Below, in pieces: positions 6,733-45,067 of a stretch of 64,000 nt of DNA. The notes beneath the pieces are model-generated. The model was not told the origin of the DNA. It saw only the letters and a list, made by a program, of their open reading frames with translations, and did not search any database. The translations under genes were made by a program, and so were the position numbers. The first letter of the stretch is position 1. Each line of letters starts with the position of its first letter. Origin of the DNA: Candidatus Limnocylindrales bacterium (GTDB lineage: Bacteria; Chloroflexota; Limnocylindria; Limnocylindrales; CSP1-4); NCBI GenBank assembly GCA_036570185.1, contig DATCPH010000166.1:620-64619 (forward strand), in the 5' to 3' direction.

Positions 6733-9381
6733 TCAGGCGCTGGTCCGGACCGGCCCCGGTGCCGCGAGGACGGATTCGATCACCTCCTCGATCGGCGTTC
6801 CGGCTACCTCCGCAAGGAGCGCGGAGGCACGCTCCGTGCCGAGCGTCTCCACGGCAAGCGTGTCCGGGTCCATCAGGTGGAGCACCTTCGCCGGCGCGAT
6901 CATCACATTCTTCTGGCGGCCGAACTCGAGGGCGGCCCCCGCGATACGGGCCCCGAATTCTGGCTCGCCGAAGCGAATCTGGATGATTGCCGCCATGCCG
7001 AGCGATCTCGCGATGCCCGAGGCCATGTCGCGCTCCGAGAAGATCCGGAGCCCCTCGGTGAGGCGTTGCCAGGCCGTCGCGACATCGTCGAGCTGAGCGT
7101 AGATGGCTGCCAGCAGGGTCAGGCTGTCTGCGACCTGGGACATCGACTCCGCGCGCCGGAACGCGGCGAGCGTCCCCTCGGCACCGTCGCGCGCCGCCGC
7201 GTAGTCGCCGGCCAGGAAGTCGACGAGGACGAGCGCCTGGTGCGCCCGCGTCACGGACGCTTCTTCGCCGGCCGAGGTATAGAGCTCCAGCGCCCGCTCG
7301 GCGTGCTCGCGCAGCTGCTGGCCCTGCCACGAGACCATGTACAGGAAGGCGATGTCGTAGTGCGCGTCTGCCAGTTGGATCGGATCGTCGAGCGTCTCGG
7401 CCAGCCGGAGACGCTCCTCGTATCGAAGCCGCGACCCGTCGAAGTCCTCCATCCAGTAGGCCAGCCCGCCGTCGGCCGCCAAGCCGGCGATCCGGAGTCG
7501 GGGATCGCTCTTCGACTCCGGCCGCGCGAGGACCTCCGCGAGAACTGACCGGGCCTCGCGGAGCCGGCCCCGCTGCTGGTACCAGCGCCACGTTGCTGAC
7601 GTGATCCGCTGGCCGACGATGACGTCGCCGGTCCGCAGCGACCAATCGATCGCGGCCCGGACGTTGTGCTGGTCGCGGTCGAGGCGCCTGAGGGCATCGT
7701 CTCCATGGGAGCCCAGGATCGCACCGCCGACCGTCTCGGCGATGCCGACGAACACCGCGGCGTGACGCGCCTCGACCGCGCCTCGCTCTCCGCTGGCGTC
7801 CAGCCGTTCCAGCGCGTACTCCTGGAGCAGAGGGTGCATCGAAAATCGCGTCTCGCCGTCAACCTCGCCAATGTCGATTCGGATGAGGCTCTTGTCCGCC
7901 AGGGACTCGAGGCCGACCAGGAGGTCAATGCCCAGGTCATCGTCCGCATCGACGATCGAGGCGGCGTCCGACGCCGTCCAGCCGCCGGCGAACACCGCCA
8001 GCCGGCGGAACAGCCGCTGTTCGGCCTTCGAGAGCAGCTCGTAACTCCAGTCGATGGCGCTCCGGCGCGTCCGCTGGCGATCAGGGAGGTCACGGGCACC
8101 GCCGCCCAGATCGAGACTACGCCCGAGCTGCTCGAGGATCGCCGTTGGTGCGAAGATCCGGATCCGCGCGGCGGCGAGCTCGATTGCCAGCGGCAGCCCC
8201 CCGAGCCGGTCGCAGATCGCGAGGATGGCGGCCTTCGACTCCTCGGTGAGCACGAGATCGGGCCGCAGGGCTCGGGCACGCTCTTCGAACAGTCGGACGC
8301 CCGCATCGACGTCCAGGGCCGGCACGAGATGGCCGCGCTCGCCGCCGATCCTGAGCAACTCCCGACTGGTCACCAGGAAGCGGACGCGCTGACCGCCGCG
8401 AGCCAGCGCGCCGACCCCTGGCGCGGCGTCCGGCAGCAGCTGCTCGAGGTTGTCCAGGAGCAACAGCACCTCTCGATCTCGCAGGTAGGTGCGAACCGCC
8501 TCCTCCGTGGTCCGCTCGCCGGACTCGCGGACGCCAACGACCGCCGCGATCGCGTCGTCGACCAAGGCCGGGTCGCGAACCGCCGCGAGGTCCACGAACC
8601 AGACGCCGTGCGGGAACCGGCCACGGACGGCCTCGGCCACGCCAATTGCGAGGCGGGTCTTGCCACTGCCGCCGGGCCCGGTGAGTGTCAGGATCCGGGT
8701 CTCCAGGAGGACCGCGTTCAGGAGATCGATCTCGGCTTCGCGGCCGACCAGCGAGGTGGTCTCGTGCGGCAGGTTTGACGGCGTCTCCAGGGTCCGCAGC
8801 GGACGGGTGTCGTCGGCGGCGCCCGGTACCGTGAGGCGATGCAGGCGGGCGGGCTCCTCGAAGTCCTTGAGGAGCCGGAGGCCCTCGTCGATGACGAACG
8901 CGCCGGTCTCCGACCTGATCCGCTCGAATTCGGGACGGACGGCGGTCGCGAGGGCGTCCGACATCAGGACCTGGCCGCCGTTGGCTGCGGCGGCGATCCG
9001 AGCCGTGTAGTTCACGTCGATGCCGACGTAGTCGAGGGGATCCTCCGGAGTCCGTTGCTGGCGCAGCCGGCCTTCGCCCAGGTGGAGGCCGGCCCGAATG
9101 CGGAGCGCCCGTCCGTCCGGCCACGGTGCAGTGGCGATCGCCCGCTGGGCTGCCGCGATCGCCTCGATCGCTCGCCCCGGGTCGGCGAACGCGGCAAACA
9201 CGGCGTCGCCCTCGGTCTTGACGACGGCGCCGTCAGCCGACTCAATCGCACCCCGGAGGAGCCGCTCGTGCTCGGCAACCACCGTCGCCCAGGTCGAGGC
9301 GCCCACGGCGCGCTCGAGTTGCGTGGAGCCCTCGATGTCCGTGAACAGGAACGTCACGGCGGGGCCGGTCGGCAAGGTCAT
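6733..9381 (-). CDS. Class III nucleotidyl cyclase / AAA (STAND-like) ATPase / TPR signalling protein
   Basis: The N-terminal cyclase domain carries FLFTDIEGST, KTEGDAVFAAF and VNYTARIAAA. A P-loop (GPGGSGKTRLA) and a TPR-like C-terminus follow. The gene is convergent with the preceding cyclase gene. Confidence 0.85.
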   Translation of the reverse strand: MTLPTGPAVTFLFTDIEGSTQLERAVGASTWATVVAEHERLLRGAIESADGAVVKTEGDAVFAAFADPGRAIEAIAAAQRAIATAPWPDGRALRIRAGLHLGEGRLRQQRTPEDPLDYVGIDVNYTARIAAAANGGQVLMSDALATAVRPEFERIRSETGAFVIDEGLRLLKDFEEPARLHRLTVPGAADDTRPLRTLETPSNLPHETTSLVGREAEIDLLNAVLLETRILTLTGPGGSGKTRLAIGVAEAVRGRFPHGVWFVDLAAVRDPALVDDAIAAVVGVRESGERTTEEAVRTYLRDREVLLLLDNLEQLLPDAAPGVGALARGGQRVRFLVTSRELLRIGGERGHLVPALDVDAGVRLFEERARALRPDLVLTEESKAAILAICDRLGGLPLAIELAAARIRIFAPTAILEQLGRSLDLGGGARDLPDRQRTRRSAIDWSYELLSKAEQRLFRRLAVFAGGWTASDAASIVDADDDLGIDLLVGLESLADKSLIRIDIGEVDGETRFSMHPLLQEYALERLDASGERGAVEARHAAVFVGIAETVGGAILGSHGDDALRRLDRDQHNVRAAIDWSLRTGDVIVGQRITSATWRWYQQRGRLREARSVLAEVLARPESKSDPRLRIAGLAADGGLAYWMEDFDGSRLRYEERLRLAETLDDPIQLADAHYDIAFLYMVSWQGQQLREHAERALELYTSAGEEASVTRAHQALVLVDFLAGDYAAARDGAEGTLAAFRRAESMSQVADSLTLLAAIYAQLDDVATAWQRLTEGLRIFSERDMASGIARSLGMAAIIQIRFGEPEFGARIAGAALEFGRQKNVMIAPAKVLHLMDPDTLAVETLGTERASALLAEVAGTPIEEVIESVLAAPGPVRTSA

Positions 9382-30439: not shown

Positions 30440-31330
30440 TCACGAGGCCGGCCCCGCGCGCACGAACGTCTCGCGATCCTCCCTGGCCCGCAGGGTCCAG
30501 GGCCCGGGCAGCCCCGCGCCGATCTCGTGACCCTCGAACCGTGTGACCGGGAGGATCCCGGCGACGCTGCTGGAGAGGAACGCCTCCTCGGCCTCGGCCA
30601 GGTCGCGCGTGGTGAGCAGGCCCTCGTGGCTCGCAAGTCCGGAGCGCCCCGCCCATCCGAGGATCCATGAACGCGTCGTCCCGGGCAGGATCGCGCAGTC
30701 AAGTGACGGCGTCGCAAGCTCGCCATCGCGGACCAGAAAGACGTTGGCTGAGGTCGCCTCCGAGACGTACCCATCGGTCGTGAGGAAGATCGCCTCGTCC
30801 GCGCCGACGCGCCGAGCCTCCAGCCTGGCGTAGACGTAATCGGCACGACTCGTCGTCTTGAGGTGGGCAAGGGGATTCTCCGGGTCGCGTCGAACGGAGC
30901 TCGCCACGACGTGCAATCCCACCTCGAGATGACTGCGGGGCGGCGGGACGACAGGCCACGCCTGGATGGCGATCGTTGCCGGGGCGGTCTCGTCCTGCGG
31001 CAGGAGCCCGCGCGCCATGAACGCCCCACGCGAGACCGTGATCCGGATCGATGCATCGCTGGTCACGCTTGCGAGCCCTTCGGCATCGAGGAGTGTGGCA
31101 ATTCCCACCTCGAGTGTCGTCTCGAACATGTCCGGCAGGACAATGGCCAACGCGCCCGCACTCGACTGGAGGCGCGCAAGATGCTCGACGAGCTCGATCG
31201 GATGGCCGGCCCGGGCGCGGAGCGTCTCGAAGACTCCGTCGCCGAGCTGGAAGCCGCGATCGAAGACCGAGAGGTGCGGTCCGTCGGCCGGCAACAGGCG
31301 ACCGTTGACCCAGACGTGTTGGGGTGCCAT
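30440..31330 (-). CDS. Class IV aminotransferase-fold enzyme (aminodeoxychorismate lyase PabC / BCAT-like)
   Basis: Fold IV PLP motifs are present (FETLRA, EATSANVF, AFLSSS). The start at MAPQHVWVNG was chosen. Confidence 0.75.
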   Translation of the reverse strand: MAPQHVWVNGRLLPADGPHLSVFDRGFQLGDGVFETLRARAGHPIELVEHLARLQSSAGALAIVLPDMFETTLEVGIATLLDAEGLASVTSDASIRITVSRGAFMARGLLPQDETAPATIAIQAWPVVPPPRSHLEVGLHVVASSVRRDPENPLAHLKTTSRADYVYARLEARRVGADEAIFLTTDGYVSEATSANVFLVRDGELATPSLDCAILPGTTRSWILGWAGRSGLASHEGLLTTRDLAEAEEAFLSSSVAGILPVTRFEGHEIGAGLPGPWTLRAREDRETFVRAGPAS

Positions 31331-31397
31331 CTCGAGGATTATCGTCCGAGCCGACCCCTCGCCGGACGCTGCGGCCCCTGCGTGGAATAATTCGCGG

Positions 31398-34300
31398 ATG
31401 GTCGCCTCCGGCGCCTCGAAGCTCGAGGCGGAGCCACCCTTCCCGCTCGGTGCCGCGGCGCTCTCAGAAGACGACGTCCTCCACCCGTTCACTCAGCCTC
31501 AGTGCTCCCTCGCCGTCCAGCTGCGGCGGGCGACCGGTGCGGTCGTCGGGCGTCCCGTCGAGTTGGAGGCGATCGACCAGGAGCTCGATTCCGGACGCAG
31601 GCATCTTGCGGCGGTCACGCTCGAGGGTGAGCCCGGGATCGGCAAGACGCGCCTGCTGGTTGCCGCGTCCGAGATCGCCGCCCGCAAGGAATTCACGTGC
31701 GTCGCCGTCACGGCCGATGAGGAGATCCGCGGACCGTTCCTGGTGGCCCAGAGCATCTTCGCCGCACCCGCCTTGCGGGCGGCAGTCGGGGGCACGCCAG
31801 CCGGCGAGGCAGTCGACCGTGCCTCGAACGCCATCTCGGGTCGCGACGAGGCCGGCTTCGAGGCGCTCCCGCCCGAGGGCAAGCTGCTCCGAACGTTCGA
31901 TCTGGCCTCCATCGCGCTCGCGCAGGCGGCCTCGGTCCAACCTCTGGCGCTCCTGATCGACGACGTGCAGTGGGCGGACGACGACACCCTCCGCATGCTC
32001 CGCTACGTCGCTCGGACCGACTCCGACCGTCCGATCTTCCTGCTGCTCGCAATCCGCCCAGATGAGGTCGCGTCGGTGACGGAGGCGGTGAACCTGATCG
32101 CCGATATGGAGCGGATGGGGCTGGTGCGCCGTCTGCGCCTTGGACGGTTCAACCAGCTCGAGACCGCCGAGCTCTGTCGCCGTGTTCTCGGCGCGACCAT
32201 TGAGCCGGCCTCGGCAGCAACACTTCACGCACAGGCGGAGGGGGTCCCATTCATCGTCGAGGAGCTGACTCGCACATACCGCGAGAACGGCATGCTCCAA
32301 CAGGTCGACGGCGTTTGGACACTGGCTCGCAACGCCGGCCGGCTGGTCCCGTCCGCCGTCCGAACCCTCATTCAGCGGCGGGCGGCTCGGTTGCCACAGG
32401 AAACCCGGGATGCGATGGGCGACGCGGCCCTGCTCGGACGGAGCTTCAGCCTTCGCGATCTGGGAGCCATCCGGCTTCGACTCGACGGATCAGAGGCTGC
32501 GCCCGGGCTGCTTGCCGAGGCGCTTGCTCCGGCCGCAGGAGCAGGCCTCCTGTTGGAACATCCGGAGAGCTCCGCTGCCGATTACACCTTCAGCCACGAG
32601 CAGGTCCGGGACTTCGCGATCGCAGGCCTGCCGCAGGCTCGCCGGCGCGCGGTACACGCCGCCATCGTCGAGCTCCTCGCGGGTGACGGCGAGCCTGCGC
32701 CTGCCAGTCTGCCGCTCCTCGCTCAGCATGCCCTGGCCGCCGGCGATCCTGAGCGGGCCGCCCGATTCTCGATCGAAGCCGCGCACGTCGCTCTCCAGTC
32801 GAACGCGCCTGAGGAAGCTCTCCGGATCGTGGAGCAGGCATTGCCCATCGTGTCGACGTCCCAGGAACGGCGAACGCTGCTCACCGCACGAGACGATGCC
32901 TATGCGGTCCTCCGCCGGGCGGCCGACCGGCTGGATGGATTGGCCGAGCTTGGAGCGCTCGCGGAGGCCCTGCGAGACTCCCATTTCGAGCTGGACGTCA
33001 TGCTCCGAAGGTCTGCCGCCCTGCGGCTCGCCGCCGAGCCGGATTCAGCAGCCGCGCTCGCCCGGCGCGTCCGGGGCCTGGCTGCCGAGCGCGGCGATGT
33101 GGCGGCGGAACTCGCGGCCTGCCTCGAGCTTGGCCAGGCGCTCCTTCGCTCGCCGCTCGGCGAGGGCTTTGGATCAGCCTCTGGCGAAGCCGACCTCGAT
33201 GGGGCCGAGGAAGCCTACCGCCGGGCCGCGGAGTTGGCCACCGAGCTCGGGGACGAGCGCGGCGTCGCGGCCGCGATCCGCGAGGTTGCGATGATTCTGC
33301 TGTCACGGGTGCGGGAATGGTTCGGCGAACAACTCCGTGCCGGGCGCGCGATGGAATTCGGCCAGCGACTCGCAGGCGGCGAGCAGCTCGACGACATGCT
33401 CCTGACCTTCCCGATCGCTCCGATGGTGGGCGAGATCAAGGGCCTCCTGGACAAGGCCCTCGGTATCTACGAGCGCCTCGGCGACCGGCGAGGTGTCATG
33501 TCCACCGTCATCGCCATGGCCTACACGAACTACGCCCCCATCATCCATTTCGCCTCGTCGGCTCGCCACATCGAGGAGATCCGGCGGGTGACGTCCCGCC
33601 TTTCATCGATGGTGACGGAAAGCGAGCGCGCCCGGCTCGAGTTGCAGATGCTCTACGGAGTCCACGTCTTCGCCCGGGCCAAGATCGTGCCGGACCTCGA
33701 GTTGGCCCGCGGCGAAGAGGCCTACCGCTCCGCCCAGATGGTGGGCGACCGCACGATCGAATTCCTGGCGGCGGGCGGAATGGCGCTCGCTCACATGGGT
33801 CTCGGCGAGATGGCGGAGGCGGAGGGCTGGCTGACTCGTGCCGGAAACGCGGCGGCGGTCGCGCCGACGACGGTCCGGGCGCGGCAGCTCGAAACCTGGC
33901 GCGGCATGGCCCGGGCTGCGGCTGGTGACGCGGCCGGCATGCGGAACCACCTCGAGCGCGCAGTCAAGATGGCCACGGATCAGGGAAACGCGGCCGCCCG
34001 ATGCGAGTCGCTGGCCCGATTGGCCATCGAATCCGCGCGGCTCGGCGCGCGGCTCCATGACGAGGAACTGCTGGCGCTGGCGGAACGCTCGGCGCTCGAG
34101 GCCAAGGAGTTGACGACCCTTCTCCCCGGACATGCACCGTGGGGCCCGCAGGCAGACGCAGCCCTTGCCGAAGTCGCGCTCGCCCGAAACCAGCCGGAGC
34201 GAGCCGTCGCCGCGGCAGGATCGGCGATCCAGGCCTTCCAGGAGGCGCTGCACGAGGACGTCAACCTGGACGTTCTGCTGATCGCCACTCGGGCCATCCT

Positions 34301-34694
34301 CGCGGGCGGTCCCCCGGATCTGCAGGCGATGATGCGCGGCTGGCTCCGCAGCATCCTTGCCGGGATCGCCCAGCGGACCATCGACGAAGACGTCCGGGTT
34401 CGCTGGATGCGGGGACCGCTGGGCCGCGAGCTCGTGGAATTGGCCGGCTCGCTGGATGGCCTCCAGACGGAACCGAGCAGCGACGGCCAGCCGGACGCGA
34501 TCGCCAACCTCGACGAAGAGGAGCGACGCCTGCTGCAGCTGCTCGCCGCCGGCAACACGAACCGGGAGATCGGGGCGGCCCTCGAGCTCTCGCCGGAAAC
34601 CGTTGCCCAGCAACTGGCCGGTCTCTTTGCCAAGATCGGCGCGTCGTCGCGAGCCGAGGCTACGTCGTTCGCGTTCCGGGGGCACCTCGTTTGA
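31398..34694 (+). CDS. LuxR-family large ATP-binding regulator (LAL: AAA/STAND + TPR-like + C-terminal LuxR HTH)
   Basis: A P-loop (GEPGIGKTRLL) is present. A long helical repeat region follows. The C-terminal HTH is LQLLAAGNTNREIGAALELSPETVAQQLAGLFAKIG. The start at 31398 is chosen downstream of the divergent pabC. The 5' 430 nt of the track ORF is rejected. Confidence 0.8.
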   Translation: MVASGASKLEAEPPFPLGAAALSEDDVLHPFTQPQCSLAVQLRRATGAVVGRPVELEAIDQELDSGRRHLAAVTLEGEPGIGKTRLLVAASEIAARKEFTCVAVTADEEIRGPFLVAQSIFAAPALRAAVGGTPAGEAVDRASNAISGRDEAGFEALPPEGKLLRTFDLASIALAQAASVQPLALLIDDVQWADDDTLRMLRYVARTDSDRPIFLLLAIRPDEVASVTEAVNLIADMERMGLVRRLRLGRFNQLETAELCRRVLGATIEPASAATLHAQAEGVPFIVEELTRTYRENGMLQQVDGVWTLARNAGRLVPSAVRTLIQRRAARLPQETRDAMGDAALLGRSFSLRDLGAIRLRLDGSEAAPGLLAEALAPAAGAGLLLEHPESSAADYTFSHEQVRDFAIAGLPQARRRAVHAAIVELLAGDGEPAPASLPLLAQHALAAGDPERAARFSIEAAHVALQSNAPEEALRIVEQALPIVSTSQERRTLLTARDDAYAVLRRAADRLDGLAELGALAEALRDSHFELDVMLRRSAALRLAAEPDSAAALARRVRGLAAERGDVAAELAACLELGQALLRSPLGEGFGSASGEADLDGAEEAYRRAAELATELGDERGVAAAIREVAMILLSRVREWFGEQLRAGRAMEFGQRLAGGEQLDDMLLTFPIAPMVGEIKGLLDKALGIYERLGDRRGVMSTVIAMAYTNYAPIIHFASSARHIEEIRRVTSRLSSMVTESERARLELQMLYGVHVFARAKIVPDLELARGEEAYRSAQMVGDRTIEFLAAGGMALAHMGLGEMAEAEGWLTRAGNAAAVAPTTVRARQLETWRGMARAAAGDAAGMRNHLERAVKMATDQGNAAARCESLARLAIESARLGARLHDEELLALAERSALEAKELTTLLPGHAPWGPQADAALAEVALARNQPERAVAAAGSAIQAFQEALHEDVNLDVLLIATRAILAGGPPDLQAMMRGWLRSILAGIAQRTIDEDVRVRWMRGPLGRELVELAGSLDGLQTEPSSDGQPDAIANLDEEERRLLQLLAAGNTNREIGAALELSPETVAQQLAGLFAKIGASSRAEATSFAFRGHLV

Positions 34695-35431
34695 GCACGA
34701 TCCGGACCCGGGTCGACCGCCACAAGTGCATCGGCGCCGGGAACTGCATCACGATCGCCCCGACCGCGTTCGACTGGTTGCGAGGCGATTTCGGCAAGGC
34801 CGATGTCGTAGGTGCGGACACCGTCGAGGAGGAGCTCCTGCGGGAAGCGGCGCTCGCCTGCCCGACCGGTGCGATCGAGATCGAAGAGATCGAGGAGCTG
34901 CTGCCCTGGCAGCTGCGAGGCAGGAGCGGACCGACCCGACGCGTCCTCAAGACCTTCATGTTCACGGATATCGTCGGCTCGACGAACCTCGTGGAAGCCC
35001 TCGGCGACGAAGCGTGGGAGACCCTCCTGCGCTGGCACGATCAAACGCTTCGGAGCACGTTCGTGGCCCACCAGGGGCAGGAGGTCGTGGCCACCGGCGA
35101 TGGATTCTTCGTCGGATTTGACTCGCCTGAGGCGGCCGCAGCGTGCGCCGTGGCGATCCAGCGCGGACTCGCCGATCACCGAAAGCAGCACGGCTTCGCG
35201 CCCCAGGTCCGGATCGGGATCCACGCGTCGGACGCGACCCAGGTCGGAACCAACTTCTCCGGCAAGGGCGTCCACGAGGCTGCCCGAATCGCCGCCCTCG
35301 CGGAAGGCGGCCAGATCCTGGCCAGCTCGAGGACACTTGCCGGCACCGAGCTCTCGACGTCCGACGCGAGGATGGTCACCCTCAAGGGCATCACAGAACC
35401 GATGGAGATCGTGACGATCGAGTGGCGTTGA
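34691..35431 (+). CDS. Fusion of a single-cluster ferredoxin domain with a class III nucleotidyl cyclase domain
   Basis: The N-terminus is an FdxD-like [3Fe-4S]/[4Fe-4S] ferredoxin signature (IRTRVDRHKCIGAGNCITIAP...LACPTGAI). The C-terminal cyclase homology domain carries FTDIVGST and ATGDGFF. A TTG start overlaps the TGA of the LAL gene as TTGA. Confidence 0.75.
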   Translation: MSTIRTRVDRHKCIGAGNCITIAPTAFDWLRGDFGKADVVGADTVEEELLREAALACPTGAIEIEEIEELLPWQLRGRSGPTRRVLKTFMFTDIVGSTNLVEALGDEAWETLLRWHDQTLRSTFVAHQGQEVVATGDGFFVGFDSPEAAAACAVAIQRGLADHRKQHGFAPQVRIGIHASDATQVGTNFSGKGVHEAARIAALAEGGQILASSRTLAGTELSTSDARMVTLKGITEPMEIVTIEWR

Positions 35432-36330
35432 CCGCGACAACGTTGCCGGTGCTGACCTGGGAAGAGTCGCGACCGACGATCGATACGCTCCGCCGCTACC
35501 TTCAGATCCTGGGGAAGATCAGGCTGGCGTCGTCACCGCCCAGGGAGCACTCCTGGAATGCCGGCTTGACCGTGACTCCACGCGGCCTCACGACCGGCCT
35601 CCTCCGCCACGGTGAGGACGACTTCGAGATCGAGCTGGACATGGTCGGGCATGCCATCTCCGCTCGCACGACGCGAGGGACGCTCGGGCGCGTCGAGATC
35701 GACGGGAGCGCGTCAGTCGCGTCCGTCTACGGCGGGCTCACCGAGATGCTGGCCGCGGATGGAATTCGGCCCACCATCCGACCCGTCCCGTATGGCCTTG
35801 CCGACACGACACCGTTCCCCGAGGATCTCGCCCCGCGGCCCTATGACCCGGCCTACATCGCAGGACTCTCCGAGGCGTTGCGGTTCGGCCACGCGGCCTT
35901 CAGCAAGTTCGCCGGCCGGGCGATCGTCAAGACAAGTCCGGTCTTCTTCTTCTGGCACAGCCTCGATCTCGTCCTCACCCGCCACCTGACGCGGCCCAAC
36001 GCCACGTCCACTGACGAGCCCCAGACTGAGGAGACGATCGCATTCGGCTTCTGGCCCGGCGACCTCGATTTCCCGCAGCCGAGCTTCTACTCGTACATGA
36101 CTCCAGAGCCACCTCGGGTGGCCGAGACGGCGCTGGCCGCCGGAGGCGTCTGGGCGCCGCAGGGTGACACTCACCTTGCCCTGCTCTCCTACGAGAACAT
36201 TCGGGCAAGCGAGGATCCGCACGGGCGCCTCCTTGATTTCCTCGACGGCGCCTACCAGGCGGAGGCACGCCTGGCCGCGTGGCCGGTCGACGCGCTTCGC
36301 TCCAAATGGAGTCCGGAACCACCGCCCTGA
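35428..36330 (+). CDS. Conserved hypothetical protein (about 300 aa), translationally coupled to the ferredoxin-cyclase gene
   Basis: A TTG start overlaps the TGA of the preceding gene. The 300-aa product has a non-biased composition. No catalytic motifs were recognised. Confidence 0.55.
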   Translation: MTATTLPVLTWEESRPTIDTLRRYLQILGKIRLASSPPREHSWNAGLTVTPRGLTTGLLRHGEDDFEIELDMVGHAISARTTRGTLGRVEIDGSASVASVYGGLTEMLAADGIRPTIRPVPYGLADTTPFPEDLAPRPYDPAYIAGLSEALRFGHAAFSKFAGRAIVKTSPVFFFWHSLDLVLTRHLTRPNATSTDEPQTEETIAFGFWPGDLDFPQPSFYSYMTPEPPRVAETALAAGGVWAPQGDTHLALLSYENIRASEDPHGRLLDFLDGAYQAEARLAAWPVDALRSKWSPEPPP

Positions 36331-36334
36331 TCGT

Positions 36335-37859
36335 TCAGCGCGGCGCGACGAGGGACTGGGAGCCACCGGCCTCCCTGACGGCGCCGATCTCGCGTCCGCC
36401 GAGCGCCTCCAGCGGACCCCGCGCCTTGGCGACCGTCTCGTCCCACTCGGCCGCCGCATCGCTTCGCCACGTGATCCCGCCACCGACGTGGAGGGTCAGC
36501 CGCTTGCCATCGGCGACGAAGGTACGGATCAGGATGCTCGTCTGCATGGCACCGTCGGGGCCGATCCAGCCGGCCGCGCCCGTGTACGGCCCGCGACGGA
36601 CCGGTTCGAGGCGCTCGAGGATCTGCATCGCGCGGATCTTCGGGGCCCCGGTGATGGAGCCACCGGGCAGCGCCGCTTTCAGCAGATCGAACGCGTCGAG
36701 GCCCCGCGCGAGGCGGCCCGTGACCGTCGACACCAGGTGCTGGACCGCAGCGGTGCGCTCGAGCCGGCACAGGCGGGGGACGCGGACGCTCCCCGGCCGG
36801 CAGACGCGGCCGAGGTCGTTGCGGAGGACGTCGACGATCATCACGTTCTCGGCGCGGTCCTTCGCGCTCGAGAGTAGCTCGCGCGCCAGCGCTCGGTCCT
36901 CCTCACCGCTCTTGCCCCTTGGCCGTGTCCCCTTGATCGGGTCGGTCGATACCCGCCCGTCCCGACCAACGGCGAGAAATGGTTCGGGCGACGCCGACAG
37001 GATCGCTCTCGGGGCGCCCGACCACGGCTGCGGCCCGAGGTCGAGATAGGCTGAAAAGAGGGCCGGATCGCCCGTCCGGAGCCGCCGGTAGAGCGGCCAC
37101 GGATCCCCGTCGAATTCCGCCTCGAGACGGCGCGTCAGGTTCGCCTGATAGAGCTCCCCCGCCGCGATCGAGGCTCGACACGAAATCGAGCGGAGCCGCC
37201 ATGTGTCGCGCCGGTGGGGCTTGCTGGAACCGGGGACCGGCCGATCCGGATCGCGGGTCCGCGCCGTCGATGAGTTCGGTGAGGCGTTCGCGGACGTCGG
37301 CGAGGCGCCGGCGGAGCCGGTCGAGGTTACCCCGGAATGCGCGCCCGCCCAACCATGCCCGCCCCTCGTGGCGATCCCAGGCGATGACCCAGTCGTGCAG
37401 CGCGAGCCGGACGGGAGGCAGGTCCTGGTCGGCGGGGACGGTTTCGGGCAGGCGCTCCAGTCGCCGGCCGGCGTCATAGCCGATGAACCCGACGAGGCCG
37501 CCAATGAATGGCGGCCCCGGCGATGAGGGTGCGACGAACCCAGGCCCGCCAGAGGGAGCGCCCTCGACGGCTGAACCGTCGAGCTGCGCGAGAAGGCGGC
37601 GCGCGCCGGCGAACGGATCCGGCCCGTCCGCCAGTGAATCGAGGACCGCCAGCGGATCCGCCGTGAGGTAGCTCCAGCGGGCGTTCCGTCCCGGTCGGGC
37701 GCTCTCGAGCAGGGCCATCCCGGGAAGATCCCGGAACGCCTCGGCAACGTCGATCGGGCGCATGCGCGCGAGGCCTGGAAGGTCGTCGAGGGATCCGACC
37801 CAGACCGTGTCTGGCCCGGCCGCGGTCGGCGGCTGAGGAGTCGCAAGCGCGGGAGTCAT
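36335..37859 (-). pseudogene. Aminodeoxychorismate/anthranilate synthase component I (PabB/TrpE family) split across two frames near 37150-37185
   Basis: The N-terminal half (MTPALATP ... FVSSLDR) is in one frame. The C-terminal chorismate-binding half (IAAGELYQANL ... GAPK ... GGGI) is in another. The two halves overlap at the nucleotide level beside a C5/G5 run. Confidence 0.7.
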
Positions 37860-42013: not shown

Positions 42014-45000
42014 TCAGGGGGCCAGGCCGGCTCTCTCCGCGACCATCGCCGCCTCGACCCGATTCGAGACGCCGAGCTTGTCGAGGATGTGCGTGACATG
42101 AACCGCGGCCGTCTTGCGGCTGATGAAGAGCCGCTCGGCGATATCGCCGTTCGACATTCCCGCCGCCACCAGCTTCAGGACTTCCACCTCACGGAGGGAT
42201 AACCCCAGGACCTGGCCGGCCTCCGGGGTCAATGTCCCCGAAGCGGGCTGGAGAGGGGCGACGTCCGATCGGCTCGCCGCCGGTGCCAGGCCGAGATCGA
42301 TCCGGGCTCGGGCGGCCAGCCTCTCGATCGATTCCGCGAGTGGGCGGGCCGAAAGCCGCATCGCCACCTCGTGGGCCGTCCGAAGCTTCGCCCCGACGTC
42401 GGCGCGTACCCCCGTCCGTCGCAACTCCGCTTCGGCGAGGCGGAACCGGGCGATGGCCGCCCGGTACGGGTCGGGCACCGCGTCCCAGGCTTCCGCGGCA
42501 GCCAACCAGGTCGCCGGATCGGACTCGCCGTCCAGGCGGCCATGTTCGGCGGCCGCGGCCACGATCCAGGCCCGGGCCGTGGCCGTGACGGCCCTGGCGG
42601 CCAAGGGTTCTCGCATCGCCTCCAGCCGTGCCCCGGTGGCGAGGGCGGCTGCCAGCAGCTCACCGCGATGCGTCGCCCGGGCGAATTCGGCCTCGTCTGC
42701 CGCTGACCGCATGCCGACCCCGATCAACGGCGCCATCCAGAAGAGGTCGTCCAGGCCCGTCATCGCCTCGATGCCTCCCTCGATGGCCGCAGCGGCCTGG
42801 TCAGGATGGCCCGCGGCTAGTGCCGTCTCGGCCTTCGAGATCGCGAGATCGGCGATCTGGTCCGCGTCGGCACCCCCGGTTTCCAGGTCCGCGAGCCGGG
42901 CTCGGGCGCGATCGACGTCGCCGCGCCATGCCTCGAGACGGCCTCGGATGGTCCGAAGGTACATGGTCCCCGCGCGCGCCGGGACGAGTCCCAGGGCCGT
43001 GCCGGTCACCTCGTCTGCCTCGTCCCAGCGTCCCTGGCGCAACAGGATGTCACCGGCGAGGGCAGAGAGGTCGAGGCCGTAGCGGCGCTCGAGACCGGTC
43101 CGCCGGGCCTCCGCGAGACCCGCCTCCGCCTCTGCGAGTGCCTCCTCGAATCGGTCGGCAAGCAGCAACGCCAGGGCGAGATTGTGATGAGCGATCATCA
43201 GGATGTCGGGCGGCCGAGCGTCCCTCTCGATTCCCTCGGCAATTGCCCTGGCGCGCCGCAGCTCGTCGAGGCCGGCCTCGATCTCGCCCATTGCAACGAG
43301 GTCCGAGCCGAGCAGGTTCCGAGCCCGACTCTCCTCGACCCGGGCTCCAGCCGCCACGGCACATTCGACGGCGGCCAGCGAGACATCACGCGATTCGGCC
43401 CAGTGGGCCGCTCCCATCAGGGCGCCCCCGAGGCCGGCCAGGACCCTCGCGCGAGCCGCGGTCGGTGGCTGGTCGGGAACGAGTTGAACGGCCTGCCGAT
43501 GGTGGTCCAGGGCAGCCTCCCCGCGTTCTGAGGCCCACAGGAGGTAGCCGAGGCGACCGTGCAGGAATCCGGCCGTCGCCGGGCTGGCAGCCGGGTCGAC
43601 CATCGCGAGGGCCTCCCGCGTGAGGGCCATCGCCCGATCGAACTCCCGCGCCAGATCGGCCTCGTCGGCCGCGCGACGCCGAAGGGACAGCGCTTCGCTC
43701 GTCGAGAGCCGCTCGCCGGTCGGCAGGGAGGCCTCGAGCTCCAGCGCCTTCTCGAAATGCCGGTGGGCATCGCCGTGGGCGTGGACGGTCGCCGCCGCAG
43801 CGGCGGCGTCAAGCGACGCTCCGAACGCCTCGGTTGATCGACCGGCGGCAAGCCAATGATGGGCAAGCTCGGCGGCGGCACCCGCAGCGGTCGGATCGGC
43901 AAGGTCGGGGCGGGCCCCCAGGGCCCCAGCGAATCGTTCGTGGAGTGCCCGCCGTTCGCCCGGCAGCAGCTCCGTTTCGACGGCCTCCCTGAGGAGCTCG
44001 TGGCGGAAGCGGTACCGGCCACTTGCCTTTTCGATGGCAATCACGCCGTGTGACATCGCCTCGCGCAGGCGCTCGTCCACGACGACCTCGTCGATCTCGA
44101 GGACGTCAGCCATCAGGCGCTCATCGACGGGTCGGCCGGCAACAGCGACGGCTGCGATCACCCGGCGGGCATCCGCAGAAAGAGCCGCGATCCTGGTCAA
44201 CAGCATCCCGTCGAGGGTCGCGGGCCGATCGTCGGAGCCGCCTGTCGACGACGCCGAAAACAGCTCCTCGACGAACATCGGGTTGCCTTCCGAGCGATGC
44301 CAGATGCGGTCCACGAGCTCGTCCTGCGGAGCCTGCCCCGCGATCGATTCCAGCTGACGTCGGACGTCGTCCCGACCGAGGCGCACCAGGTCGATCCTGC
44401 CACTGCCCGGCACCCTGCCGACCTCGGCAAGCCAGGTAAGGATCGGATCATCGGGAGCCAGCGCATCGAGCCGCATCGTCAGGACACCGACGACCCGTTC
44501 GACGGTCAGGTTTCGAGCAAGGAAGCGGAGCATGTCGCGTGTCGCGTTGTCGATCCAGTGGATGTCTTCAATCACGACGAGGGTCGGAGCGGCCTCGCCC
44601 AGCCGGCTGACGAGTTGGAGCATCCGCTCGAACAGCATCTGCTGGCTGAGGTCGGACGGGCGGATCGTGGTGGGGGCCTCCAGCGGCGAGCTCTCGGCCG
44701 GGCTCGCCGACGTGGCCTCCGCGAGTTCCGGAAGGATCGCGGCGAGGTCCGCGCGACCCGGCCCAAGCAGCGCATCGAGCTCGACGGCTGAGGTCCGCCG
44801 CACGAGCGACCGAAGCGCCTCGGCGAGCGGCAGGTAGGGCAGGCCGCCGTCGCCGATATCCAGACAGCCTCCGGTCAGCACCCGCCAGCCGTCGGTCCGG
44901 GCTCGGTCGGCTGCGGCCTCGATCAGGCGCGTCTTGCCGATCCCCGCTTCTCCCCCGACGATCAGGAGCCGCGGACGCCCCGCAGCGGCATCGGCTCGGG

Positions 45001-45067
45001 CTTCATCGACCTGGGCGAGATCGCGTTCTCGCCCGATCAGCTCGGTGCTGGTCTCGCGGCCTGCCAT
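42014..45067 (-). CDS. LuxR-family large ATP-binding regulator (LAL: AAA/STAND + TPR-like + LuxR HTH)
   Basis: A P-loop (GGEAGIGKTRLI) is present. The C-terminal HTH is VLKLVAAGMSNGDIAERLFISRKTAAVHVTHILDKLG. Confidence 0.85.
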   Translation of the reverse strand: MAGRETSTELIGRERDLAQVDEARADAAAGRPRLLIVGGEAGIGKTRLIEAAADRARTDGWRVLTGGCLDIGDGGLPYLPLAEALRSLVRRTSAVELDALLGPGRADLAAILPELAEATSASPAESSPLEAPTTIRPSDLSQQMLFERMLQLVSRLGEAAPTLVVIEDIHWIDNATRDMLRFLARNLTVERVVGVLTMRLDALAPDDPILTWLAEVGRVPGSGRIDLVRLGRDDVRRQLESIAGQAPQDELVDRIWHRSEGNPMFVEELFSASSTGGSDDRPATLDGMLLTRIAALSADARRVIAAVAVAGRPVDERLMADVLEIDEVVVDERLREAMSHGVIAIEKASGRYRFRHELLREAVETELLPGERRALHERFAGALGARPDLADPTAAGAAAELAHHWLAAGRSTEAFGASLDAAAAAATVHAHGDAHRHFEKALELEASLPTGERLSTSEALSLRRRAADEADLAREFDRAMALTREALAMVDPAASPATAGFLHGRLGYLLWASERGEAALDHHRQAVQLVPDQPPTAARARVLAGLGGALMGAAHWAESRDVSLAAVECAVAAGARVEESRARNLLGSDLVAMGEIEAGLDELRRARAIAEGIERDARPPDILMIAHHNLALALLLADRFEEALAEAEAGLAEARRTGLERRYGLDLSALAGDILLRQGRWDEADEVTGTALGLVPARAGTMYLRTIRGRLEAWRGDVDRARARLADLETGGADADQIADLAISKAETALAAGHPDQAAAAIEGGIEAMTGLDDLFWMAPLIGVGMRSAADEAEFARATHRGELLAAALATGARLEAMREPLAARAVTATARAWIVAAAAEHGRLDGESDPATWLAAAEAWDAVPDPYRAAIARFRLAEAELRRTGVRADVGAKLRTAHEVAMRLSARPLAESIERLAARARIDLGLAPAASRSDVAPLQPASGTLTPEAGQVLGLSLREVEVLKLVAAGMSNGDIAERLFISRKTAAVHVTHILDKLGVSNRVEAAMVAERAGLAP

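Follow-up and report, generated by a model that had tools for sequence, protein, structure and literature searches.

Three genes on the plus strand of a 64,000-nucleotide stretch of DNA from a Candidatus Limnocylindrales bacterium (contig DATCPH010000166.1; that whole stretch is called the window here) follow one another with four-nucleotide overlaps, and they raise the question of which of them belong together and what the resulting system does. The first gene, A, encodes a regulator of the LAL kind (large ATP-binding regulators of the LuxR family), which belongs to the STAND class of NTPases (signal transduction ATPases with numerous domains). The second, B, encodes a ferredoxin domain joined to a class III nucleotide cyclase domain, and the third, C, a protein of the DUF5996 family. 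An earlier note on this DNA had read the three genes as one translationally coupled unit. We found that A and B are an obligate gene pair, and the features of the two proteins suggest that a redox- or iron-sulfur-gated cyclase/transcription switch is the most likely role of this pair. The genes and their junctions are as follows.

31398..34694, plus strand: gene A, from ATG at 31398 to TGA at 34692-34694, 1098 amino acids (aa)
34691..34694, plus strand: TTGA overlap of A and B, with the A stop TGA (34692-94) on the B start TTG (34691-93)
34691..35431, plus strand: gene B, from TTG at 34691-34693 to TGA at 35429-35431, 246 aa
35428..35431, plus strand: TTGA overlap of B and C, with the B stop TGA (35429-31) on the C start TTG (35428-30)
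35428..36330, plus strand: gene C, from TTG at 35428-35430 (300 aa) or from GTG at 35422 (302 aa)

The LAL gene and the ferredoxin-cyclase gene form an obligate pair

Since B is the rarest of the three genes, it was used as the anchor for comparing loci. A scan of a collection with one genome per species (GTDB representatives) returned at least 343 stretches with a B relative, the best 80 of which were examined, and five further loci were obtained by exact look-up; loci L001-L003 are copies of the window's own sequence. Relatives of B number in the thousands in databases, and the best 120 are all 225-257 aa long and 73-100% identical, with both domains present in all but one. The loci belong to metagenome-assembled genomes that carry the label Actinomycetota (among them Gaiellaceae, Solirubrobacterales, and Nitriliruptorales) or Chloroflexota (Limnocylindrales, Dehalococcoidia, and others). 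A full-length A orthologue with 51-67% identity was found immediately 5' of B, on the same strand, in all 82 B-anchored loci. The gap between the A stop and the B start ranged from -4 to +32 nt, except at one locus where the start-codon pick misfired; it was -4 nt in 10 loci, -1 in 11, 0 to 5 in 26, and 10 to 32 in 33. For the reverse test, an alignment of A orthologues was searched against metagenome contigs. B was the next gene in 8 of the 8 A-anchored loci (at least 49% identity) whose contig continued past A, and a B-like gene stood beside none of 57 generic LALs (33% identity or less). Across phyla, B shows higher identity (70-81%) than A (51-67%).

Clustering of all flanking open reading frames revealed no other conserved neighbour, the largest cluster being one of paralogous large cyclase/STAND genes at 20 of the 82 loci. 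A DUF5996 gene followed B in L001-L003 only, and in none of the 79 other species-level loci or the 8 metagenome loci. The closest B that is not the window's own (81% identity) has an Rv1264-like cyclase and a nitroreductase downstream and no DUF5996 gene, and the DUF5996 genes of three other genomes lie in unrelated contexts. C itself matches DUF5996 (PF19459) over profile positions 2-295 of 296 (2.6e-74, 250.4 bits against a cut-off of 25); one relative is a fragment with 88% identity, all others are at most 45% identical, and a search of the full-text literature found no paper mentioning the family. Because A and B adjoin in both directions of the search and DUF5996 is confined to this lineage, we are highly confident that the functional unit is A plus B and that C is not part of it. 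C is a lineage-specific passenger behind B that is probably co-transcribed here.

The three-gene unit proposed earlier thus does not hold for C, which follows B in copies of the window's sequence only. The note had named a lack of co-occurrence in related genomes as the observation that would count against it; this lack was found for C, whereas A and B co-occur. The stronger form of the same idea, that all three proteins including the DUF5996 protein form one obligate stoichiometric signalling complex, took its appeal from the two overlaps and is largely refuted by these gene-neighbourhood data; we consider it very improbable. Both TTGA overlaps are present at exactly the bases that had been reported (34691-94 and 35428-31). 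A 4-nt stop/start overlap is the commonest type of same-strand overlap in GC-rich operons, so the overlaps in the window, in a region of about 69% G+C, do not alone go beyond chance; what exceeds chance is the conservation of the A-B junction across other genomes. The stoichiometric co-expression that had been deduced from the overlaps reads too much into them: translational coupling is plausible, but coupling does not fix stoichiometry.

The gene calls agree with independent evidence. Third-position GC (frame statistics) marks three consecutive plus-strand genes in the frames as called, and public Joint Genome Institute (JGI) calls on the 123-kb metagenome contig to which the window belongs (Ga0120111_1000004) give identical coordinates for A and B. 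In the JGI call C begins at GTG 35422, two codons further upstream, so that B and C share 10 nt; B is overlapped by C with either start. Any B start other than TTG 34691 would cost the protein its ferredoxin domain, and more than 100 orthologues of 244-246 aa have N-termini that align with this one. A scan for consensus promoters and terminators found no terminator-like or two-hexamer promoter-like site inside 31000-36700.

Cyclase genes tend to group around the A-B module. The large paralogous genes mentioned above lie within a few kb of A-B (L005, L061, L055, L076, and others), downstream of B and on the opposite strand, and encode proteins of about 1200-1350 aa; the one at L005 has zinc-ribbon, Guanylate_cyc, and AAA_16 domains by Pfam. 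At L174 an Rv1264-like cyclase (Ad_Cy_reg and Guanylate_cyc) directly follows B.

Gene A encodes an LAL with a conserved N-terminal peptide

Pfam agrees with the domain guesses that had been made, with AAA_16 and GerE in A and Fer4_13 and Guanylate_cyc in B, and it places C in DUF5996. The features of A are listed below.

31542-32042, plus strand: AAA_16 NTPase domain of A, residues 49-215 (Pfam 6e-15)
31626-31649, plus strand: Walker A motif of A, G77-T84, GEPGIGKT, invariant in 16 orthologues
31959-31964, plus strand: Walker B motif of A, D188-D189, invariant in 16 orthologues
34515-34673, plus strand: LuxR/GerE helix-turn-helix of A, residues 1040-1092 (Pfam GerE 3.6e-10)

The NTPase and helix-turn-helix domains mark A as a bona fide LAL, with a long helical middle region between the two. 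The 52 intact A orthologues, of 1061-1173 aa, show conservation throughout except over roughly the first 30 residues. Residues 166-583 match, below cut-off, the STAND/TPR part of the TOMM kinase/cyclase model TIGR03903; TPR models gave nothing against A itself at E < 0.01, and a 42%-identical protein of the second arrangement described below (type II, as against type I of the window) has a TPR_12 match. In type I orthologues of A, a peptide with a conserved Cys, PQCSLAVQ.RR, precedes the NTPase (31482-31526, residues ~29-43). This peptide may be a docking site for B; it can be aligned only loosely with the linker that follows the cyclase domain in type II proteins (QPERAASAGLPRR).

A conserved operator upstream of A was considered and rejected, as the enriched 8-mers encode this same N-terminal peptide of A. 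The only element common to the non-coding part upstream of A is an AT-rich GATAAT(C) -10-like box, and GATAATC occurs just 5' of the A start in 10 other loci; a repeat search around the A start found nothing decisive. The 67-nt divergent gap of the window (31331-31397) contains two AT-rich -10-like hexamers, arranged as TGG-AATAAT-N6-ATG(31398) and, on the minus strand, as GATAAT-N9-ATG(31330).

31386..31391, plus strand: -10-like hexamer AATAAT with TGG before it, 6 nt 5' of the A ATG at 31398 (read from the sequence)
31345-31340, minus strand: mirror hexamer GATAAT, 9 nt before ATG 31330 of the divergent aminotransferase gene

This arrangement suggests putative back-to-back leaderless promoters in the gap. 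Leaderless transcription is common in Actinobacteria, and a -10-like box 6 nt before the ATG, with its recurrence in ten loci, would fit a leaderless start and support ATG 31398.

The genome is rich in STAND regulators. A second LAL paralogue in the window (42014-45067, minus strand; AAA_16-TPR-GerE, 1017 aa) is ~25% identical to A and has no ferredoxin or cyclase gene adjoining. Once the offset that fits A and B is applied, its coordinates in the JGI copy L001 still differ by 44 nt from those in the window, which affects the window downstream of ~36400; a small indel between these records is one possible explanation, and an origin of the window in a near-identical contig is another. A cyclase-STAND gene at 6733-9381 (minus strand) encodes Guanylate_cyc, NB-ARC/AAA_16, and Roq1-like winged helix domains in a protein of 882 aa, or slightly longer at its N-terminus, whose cyclase domain is 34% identical to that of B.

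B joins a predicted [3Fe-4S] ferredoxin domain to a cyclase domain

Residues of B were mapped with an alignment of 18 orthologues, alignments to PDB sequences (Ma1120, Rv1900c), and a census of 134 diverged representatives of the subfamily.

34712-34879, plus strand: Fer4_13 domain of B, residues 8-63 (Pfam 1.9e-9; Fer4_15 also matches)
34727-29, 34745-47, and 34859-61, plus strand: cysteines C13, C19, and C57 of B, invariant
34952-35389, plus strand: class III cyclase domain of B, residues 88-233 (Pfam Guanylate_cyc 1e-7, 32.1 bits against a cut-off of 21.9)
34967-69, 35099-101, 35273-75, and 35285-87, plus strand: cyclase residues D93, D137, H195, and R199 of B, placed with K232 by the alignments

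The cluster motif of B reads C13-x2-A16-x2-C19...C57-P58 (C13-IGA-GN-C19) and has no fourth Cys; its three Cys occur in every one of 18 type I and 5 type II sequences. CXXA/GXXC(X)nCP is the motif of [3Fe-4S] single-cluster ferredoxins (PMC6237146). By this motif the N-terminal domain of B is a ferredoxin of the [3Fe-4S] type, and it is predicted to carry such a cluster. The linker between the ferredoxin and the cyclase, LLPWQ.R...RRV.KTFMFTD, is invariant in the 18 orthologues, as would be expected of an element that relays a signal.

The solved sequences closest to B are Ma1120 of Mycobacterium avium (E 1e-24) and the cyclase domain of Rv1900c/LipJ of M. tuberculosis (7e-22). Little or no variation is seen, across the 18 orthologues and the 134 representatives, at the metal-binding D93 and D137, at G191, at the transition-state R199, and at the phosphate-binding K232. 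The transition-state Asn-Arg pair is incomplete in B, with Arg199 kept and the Asn replaced by His195, a replacement shared by 121 of 134 subfamily members. In the alignment Rv1900c likewise has His at the Asn position, within a VHxxAR motif, and Sinha et al. are said to have found in 2005 that Rv1900c with this His is an active cyclase. Ma1120 has Ala at the same position and is an active adenylyl cyclase, the activity of which is abolished when the Asn is put back (PMC4215837). The His of Rv1900c and the Ala of active Ma1120 indicate that the transition-state Asn is not strictly required in this clade, and the residues retained in B suggest that it is probably catalytically competent.

The same three modules occur in a second arrangement

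At locus L101, an A homologue (42% identity over 1066 residues with 16 gaps, end to end) carries a cyclase domain at its N-terminus. This protein of 1227 aa has Guanylate_cyc at residues 12-153, AAA_16 at 186-354, TPR_12, and GerE at 1167-1221, and its stop codon overlaps, as ATGA, the start of a gene for a stand-alone 72-aa Fer4_13 ferredoxin. A search with the L101 protein found ~45 relatives with the same three domains, the scores of which were interleaved with those of cyclase-less A-type LALs. A gene for a 68-80-aa Fer4_13 ferredoxin was found at -4 to +1 nt in 4 of the 4 contigs that could be inspected (L170-L173, encoding proteins 39-57% identical to that of L101). Type II, a cyclase-LAL protein of 1227-1273 aa followed by a ferredoxin, was thereby observed at 5 of 5 loci (L101 and L170-L173). 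The type II ferredoxins are 49-54% identical to the ferredoxin domain of B, have the same three Cys, and share with type I the signature D(R/K)xxCIGAxxCIxxAPTAFxW...CPTxAI. In type II proteins the cyclase domain carries the canonical Lys and Asp that specify adenine. In both types the ferredoxin reading frame begins at the end of the LuxR-encoding gene. The conserved set is a STAND-LuxR regulator, a cyclase domain, and a three-Cys ferredoxin, and it exists in two permutations, LAL / ferredoxin-cyclase and cyclase-LAL / ferredoxin.

This constancy bears on the possibility that the ferredoxin is an electron carrier of the usual kind, whose fusion to a cyclase is incidental and which serves, for instance, an unlinked enzyme, with the A-B adjacency reflecting co-regulation only. 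Ferredoxins of the Fer4_13/Fer4_15 kind that bear this motif typically act as redox partners of P450 enzymes (PMC6237146), but no P450 or reductase is conserved nearby, two domain arrangements both keep the ferredoxin at the LAL gene's 3' end, and the linker that joins it to the cyclase is invariant. We regard the carrier explanation as improbable.

Fusions were sought by searching B with HMMER against 1.8 billion cluster representatives and scanning nine large proteins with Pfam. Far larger proteins were found whose C-terminal domains share 50-62% identity with the cyclase domain of B (residues ~78-246). Three of these, in three separate 50% clusters, have the architecture AAA_16-TPR-GerE-Guanylate_cyc (P0382, 1233 aa; P0359, 1187 aa; P0242, 1158 aa), so that their domain order is the gene order from A to B without the ferredoxin, and their cyclase domains are 51-62% identical to that of B. 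The 90% cluster of P0382 holds four independent members of 1233 aa, and we take this fusion to be real. Other architectures were AAA_16-TPR-cyclase, TPR-cyclase (~650 aa, common), BTAD-AAA_16-cyclase, and protein kinase-STAND-TPR-cyclase, and in 130 of 133 representatives the cyclase domain of the subfamily is the C-terminal output of a STAND/TPR protein. Apparent fusions of A to B with the order GerE-Fer4-cyclase (P0235, P0236, P0240, P0245, P0247) were left uncounted as frameshift artefacts, since garbled, Arg-rich sequence stands midway through their cyclase domains and their source assemblies are long-read ones. Such artefacts, of which L089 is another case, could mislead surveys of domain architecture.

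A proposed redox- or iron-sulfur-gated switch and its rivals

Class III cyclases all homodimerise through the cyclase domain. We propose that B, a small cytoplasmic protein, would likewise be a homodimer held together by this domain, with the residues for catalysis retained according to the alignments. The condition of its iron-sulfur cluster, whether a change of redox state or damage from O2, NO, or iron limitation, would be relayed through the linker and would alter the activity of the cyclase, the conformation of B, or both. B would then act on or with A by direct contact and possibly also through a cyclic nucleotide, as the domain permutations and fusions suggest, and would in this way control the nucleotide-dependent oligomerisation of A and the binding of DNA by its LuxR domain. 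A may turn on a regulon encoded elsewhere, from LuxR-box promoters away from the module, a placement suggested by the variability of the module's neighbours. The A mRNA is probably leaderless and made from the AT-rich -10 box, and B would be translated by coupling to the A stop codon. The explanation as a whole, comprising the A-B module, this mechanism, and C as a passenger, seems to us somewhat better than evenly balanced, and the specific chain from redox sensor to cyclase to LAL falls a little short of an even chance.

Several observations weigh against this proposal. At the substrate-specifying positions B has Val133 and Asn188, which are neither the Lys/Asp of adenylyl cyclases nor the Glu...Cys/Ser/Gly of guanylyl cyclases. 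Both positions are non-canonical and vary in the subfamily, so the product of B is not predictable; it might be a nucleotide other than cAMP or cGMP, and a non-catalytic role of B is possible. Pfam detects no cyclic-nucleotide-binding domain in A. The AlphaFold2 model of B predicts the cyclase domain well, but the ferredoxin domain has a predicted local distance difference test score (pLDDT) of 30-50, a value explained by the shallow alignment and a cofactor-dependent fold, and the model thus offers no usable ferredoxin-cyclase geometry. The cyclase domain of B is 36-38% identical to that of type II, so types I and II do not differ by a simple domain transfer, and the LuxR-cyclase fusions resemble A at just 24-30% identity in their LAL parts, so these fusions support the architecture and not orthology. 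Ferredoxins with a [3Fe-4S] cluster and this Pfam assignment are known chiefly as stable carriers of electrons to P450 enzymes and not as sensors. The cluster, the cyclase activity, the contact between A and B, and the DNA binding are read from sequence and gene context, and all loci come from metagenome-assembled genomes, so that there is no cultured host.

Some of these points are shared by the main rival, according to which B is no enzyme and its cyclase-homology domain serves for dimerisation or as an adaptor that docks a redox-active ferredoxin on the STAND regulator, signals passing from protein to protein alone and no cyclic nucleotide being made. The replaced and variable Lys/Asp positions, the His in place of the transition-state Asn, and the lack of a detectable cyclic-nucleotide-binding domain in A all fit this explanation, as does the position of the type II cyclase domain, which sits where STAND proteins carry an N-terminal effector. 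Yet the Asp pair, the Arg, the Lys, and the sequence G-x-x-V-H-x-x-x-R are nearly invariant in the 134 representatives, which is hard to explain without catalysis in sequences so diverged; the type II cyclase keeps the adenine-specifying Lys and Asp; and Ma1120, with Ala at the Asn position, is an active cyclase (PMC4215837). We consider the adaptor unlikely, though it is the rival to be taken most seriously.

A role in anti-phage defence, as an Avs- or Pycsar-like STAND-plus-cyclase system whose cyclase makes an alarm nucleotide, is suggested by the frequent occurrence of both STAND NTPases and enzymes of the cyclase fold in defence systems, by the variable neighbourhoods, and by weak PADLOC PycC matches for B (E 1.5e-4 to 9e-3). 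These matches, however, are at the level of the generic cyclase fold, A matches no defence STAND model in PADLOC, and A ends in a LuxR DNA-binding domain, with no nuclease, TIR, pore, or other killing effector. No gene for an effector activated by a cyclic nucleotide is adjacent or conserved, and the 70-81% conservation across phyla is unlike that of fast-evolving defence genes. A defence role is hardly credible on these grounds, and the redox- or iron-sulfur-gated switch is retained as the most likely role of the pair.

Comparison with known systems

The nearest described system is Mclx, of which the type I arrangement in the window is a split, ferredoxin-bearing version. We know of no ferredoxin partner described for Mclx proteins. 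These proteins (Rv0386, Rv1358, Rv2488c) combine a cyclase homology domain, AAA/NB-ARC, and a LuxR helix-turn-helix in one polypeptide, a combination described as nearly exclusive to mycobacteria (PMC4452763). Shared with the window's pair are the class III cyclase, the STAND NTPase with a helical sensor region, and the C-terminal LuxR domain, and the type II proteins have exactly the Mclx domain order, with the cyclase N-terminal. In the window, by contrast, the cyclase is fused to a ferredoxin and resides on a separate protein encoded by a coupled downstream gene, so that the domains are not in a single polypeptide, and the present module is found in uncultured Actinomycetota and Chloroflexota instead of mycobacteria.

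A resembles LALs of the MalT, PikD, and GdmR types in its size of ~1100 aa, its N-terminal Walker A/B NTPase, its helical middle, and its C-terminal LuxR domain. In classical LALs a sensor domain of the regulator itself detects small molecules, and the gene usually lies inside the catabolic or biosynthetic cluster under its control, whereas A has a dedicated protein partner in B and no conserved target genes nearby. B shares the Asp pair, the Arg, and a residue other than Asn at the second transition-state position with the class IIIc cyclases Ma1120 and Rv1900c/LipJ (PDB 4wp3, 1ybt); it differs from Ma1120, which has the canonical Lys/Asp substrate pair where B has Val/Asn, and from Rv1900c, which is fused to an alpha/beta-hydrolase instead of a ferredoxin. 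Likeness to the actinobacterial [3Fe-4S] ferredoxins (Fer4_13/Fer4_15; CXX?XXC(X)nCP, PMC6237146) extends to the ~60-residue length, the CxxAxxC...CP motif, and a Pfam match above threshold, but those are free-standing P450 carriers, whereas the ferredoxin here is fused to a cyclase (type I) or coupled to a cyclase-LAL (type II). An iron-sulfur cluster also serves as the input of a transcription regulator in OrpR (an AAA+ activator, PMC8359166) and in the FNR/WhiB regulators; these belong to unrelated families, hold the cluster inside the regulator itself, and have no cyclase.

The individual domains of A and B are all familiar, and their combination, an LAL with a ferredoxin-cyclase, is undescribed. 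This bears out, for the pair, the earlier statement that the combination is not a textbook system: neither the ferredoxin-cyclase nor its pairing with an LAL is covered by an NCBIfam model at cut-off, by a solved structure, or by a paper in the searched library, and no paper on an iron-sulfur class III cyclase was found in the searchable full-text literature. For cyclase-STAND-LuxR proteins in general, neither the sensed input nor the crosstalk from cyclase to transcription factor is understood, and Agarwal et al. are said to have linked one of them, Rv0386 of Mycobacterium tuberculosis, to virulence in 2009. Because the environmental relatives found here always carry a three-Cys ferredoxin, either fused or coupled, iron-sulfur or redox state becomes a concrete candidate for this input. 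That the ferredoxin is the long-missing input of the whole Mclx-like class, its cluster gating both messenger synthesis and STAND oligomerisation, is a more speculative proposal that we hold to be doubtful. B is a small soluble protein of 246 aa in which the coupling of a sensor to a cyclase could be studied. If the ferredoxin does control catalysis, it would be a new type of sensor for cyclic-nucleotide signalling, and B would be the first iron-sulfur-regulated class III nucleotide cyclase. The module is present in at least 343 species-level genomes of uncultured Actinomycetota and Chloroflexota from soil, permafrost, and groundwater, and it likely matters for the responses of these abundant and poorly known bacteria to shifts in oxygen or redox conditions.

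Genes flanking the block in the window

The earlier note had placed the block divergent to pabC and convergent to pabB, and outside any metabolic operon. The two flanking genes are these.

30440-31330, minus strand: class IV aminotransferase, PabC/BCAT-like, the divergent left flank
36335-37807/37846, minus strand: PabB-like chorismate-binding enzyme, the convergent right flank, ending at 36335

The orientations and the kinds of both genes are as claimed. The aminotransferase scores under every NCBIfam cut-off and the PabB-like protein reaches 316.5 bits against a cut-off of 328.4; with all NCBIfam matches below their cut-offs, the names pabC and pabB are plausible and unproven. The neighbours of the pair change in nearly every genome, in keeping with a block outside a metabolic operon. 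In the window the plus-strand genes A, B, and C stand between the minus-strand PabB-like and class IV aminotransferase genes with spacers of 4 nt and 67 nt, and the block looks as if it were a cassette inserted into a pabB-pabC pair.

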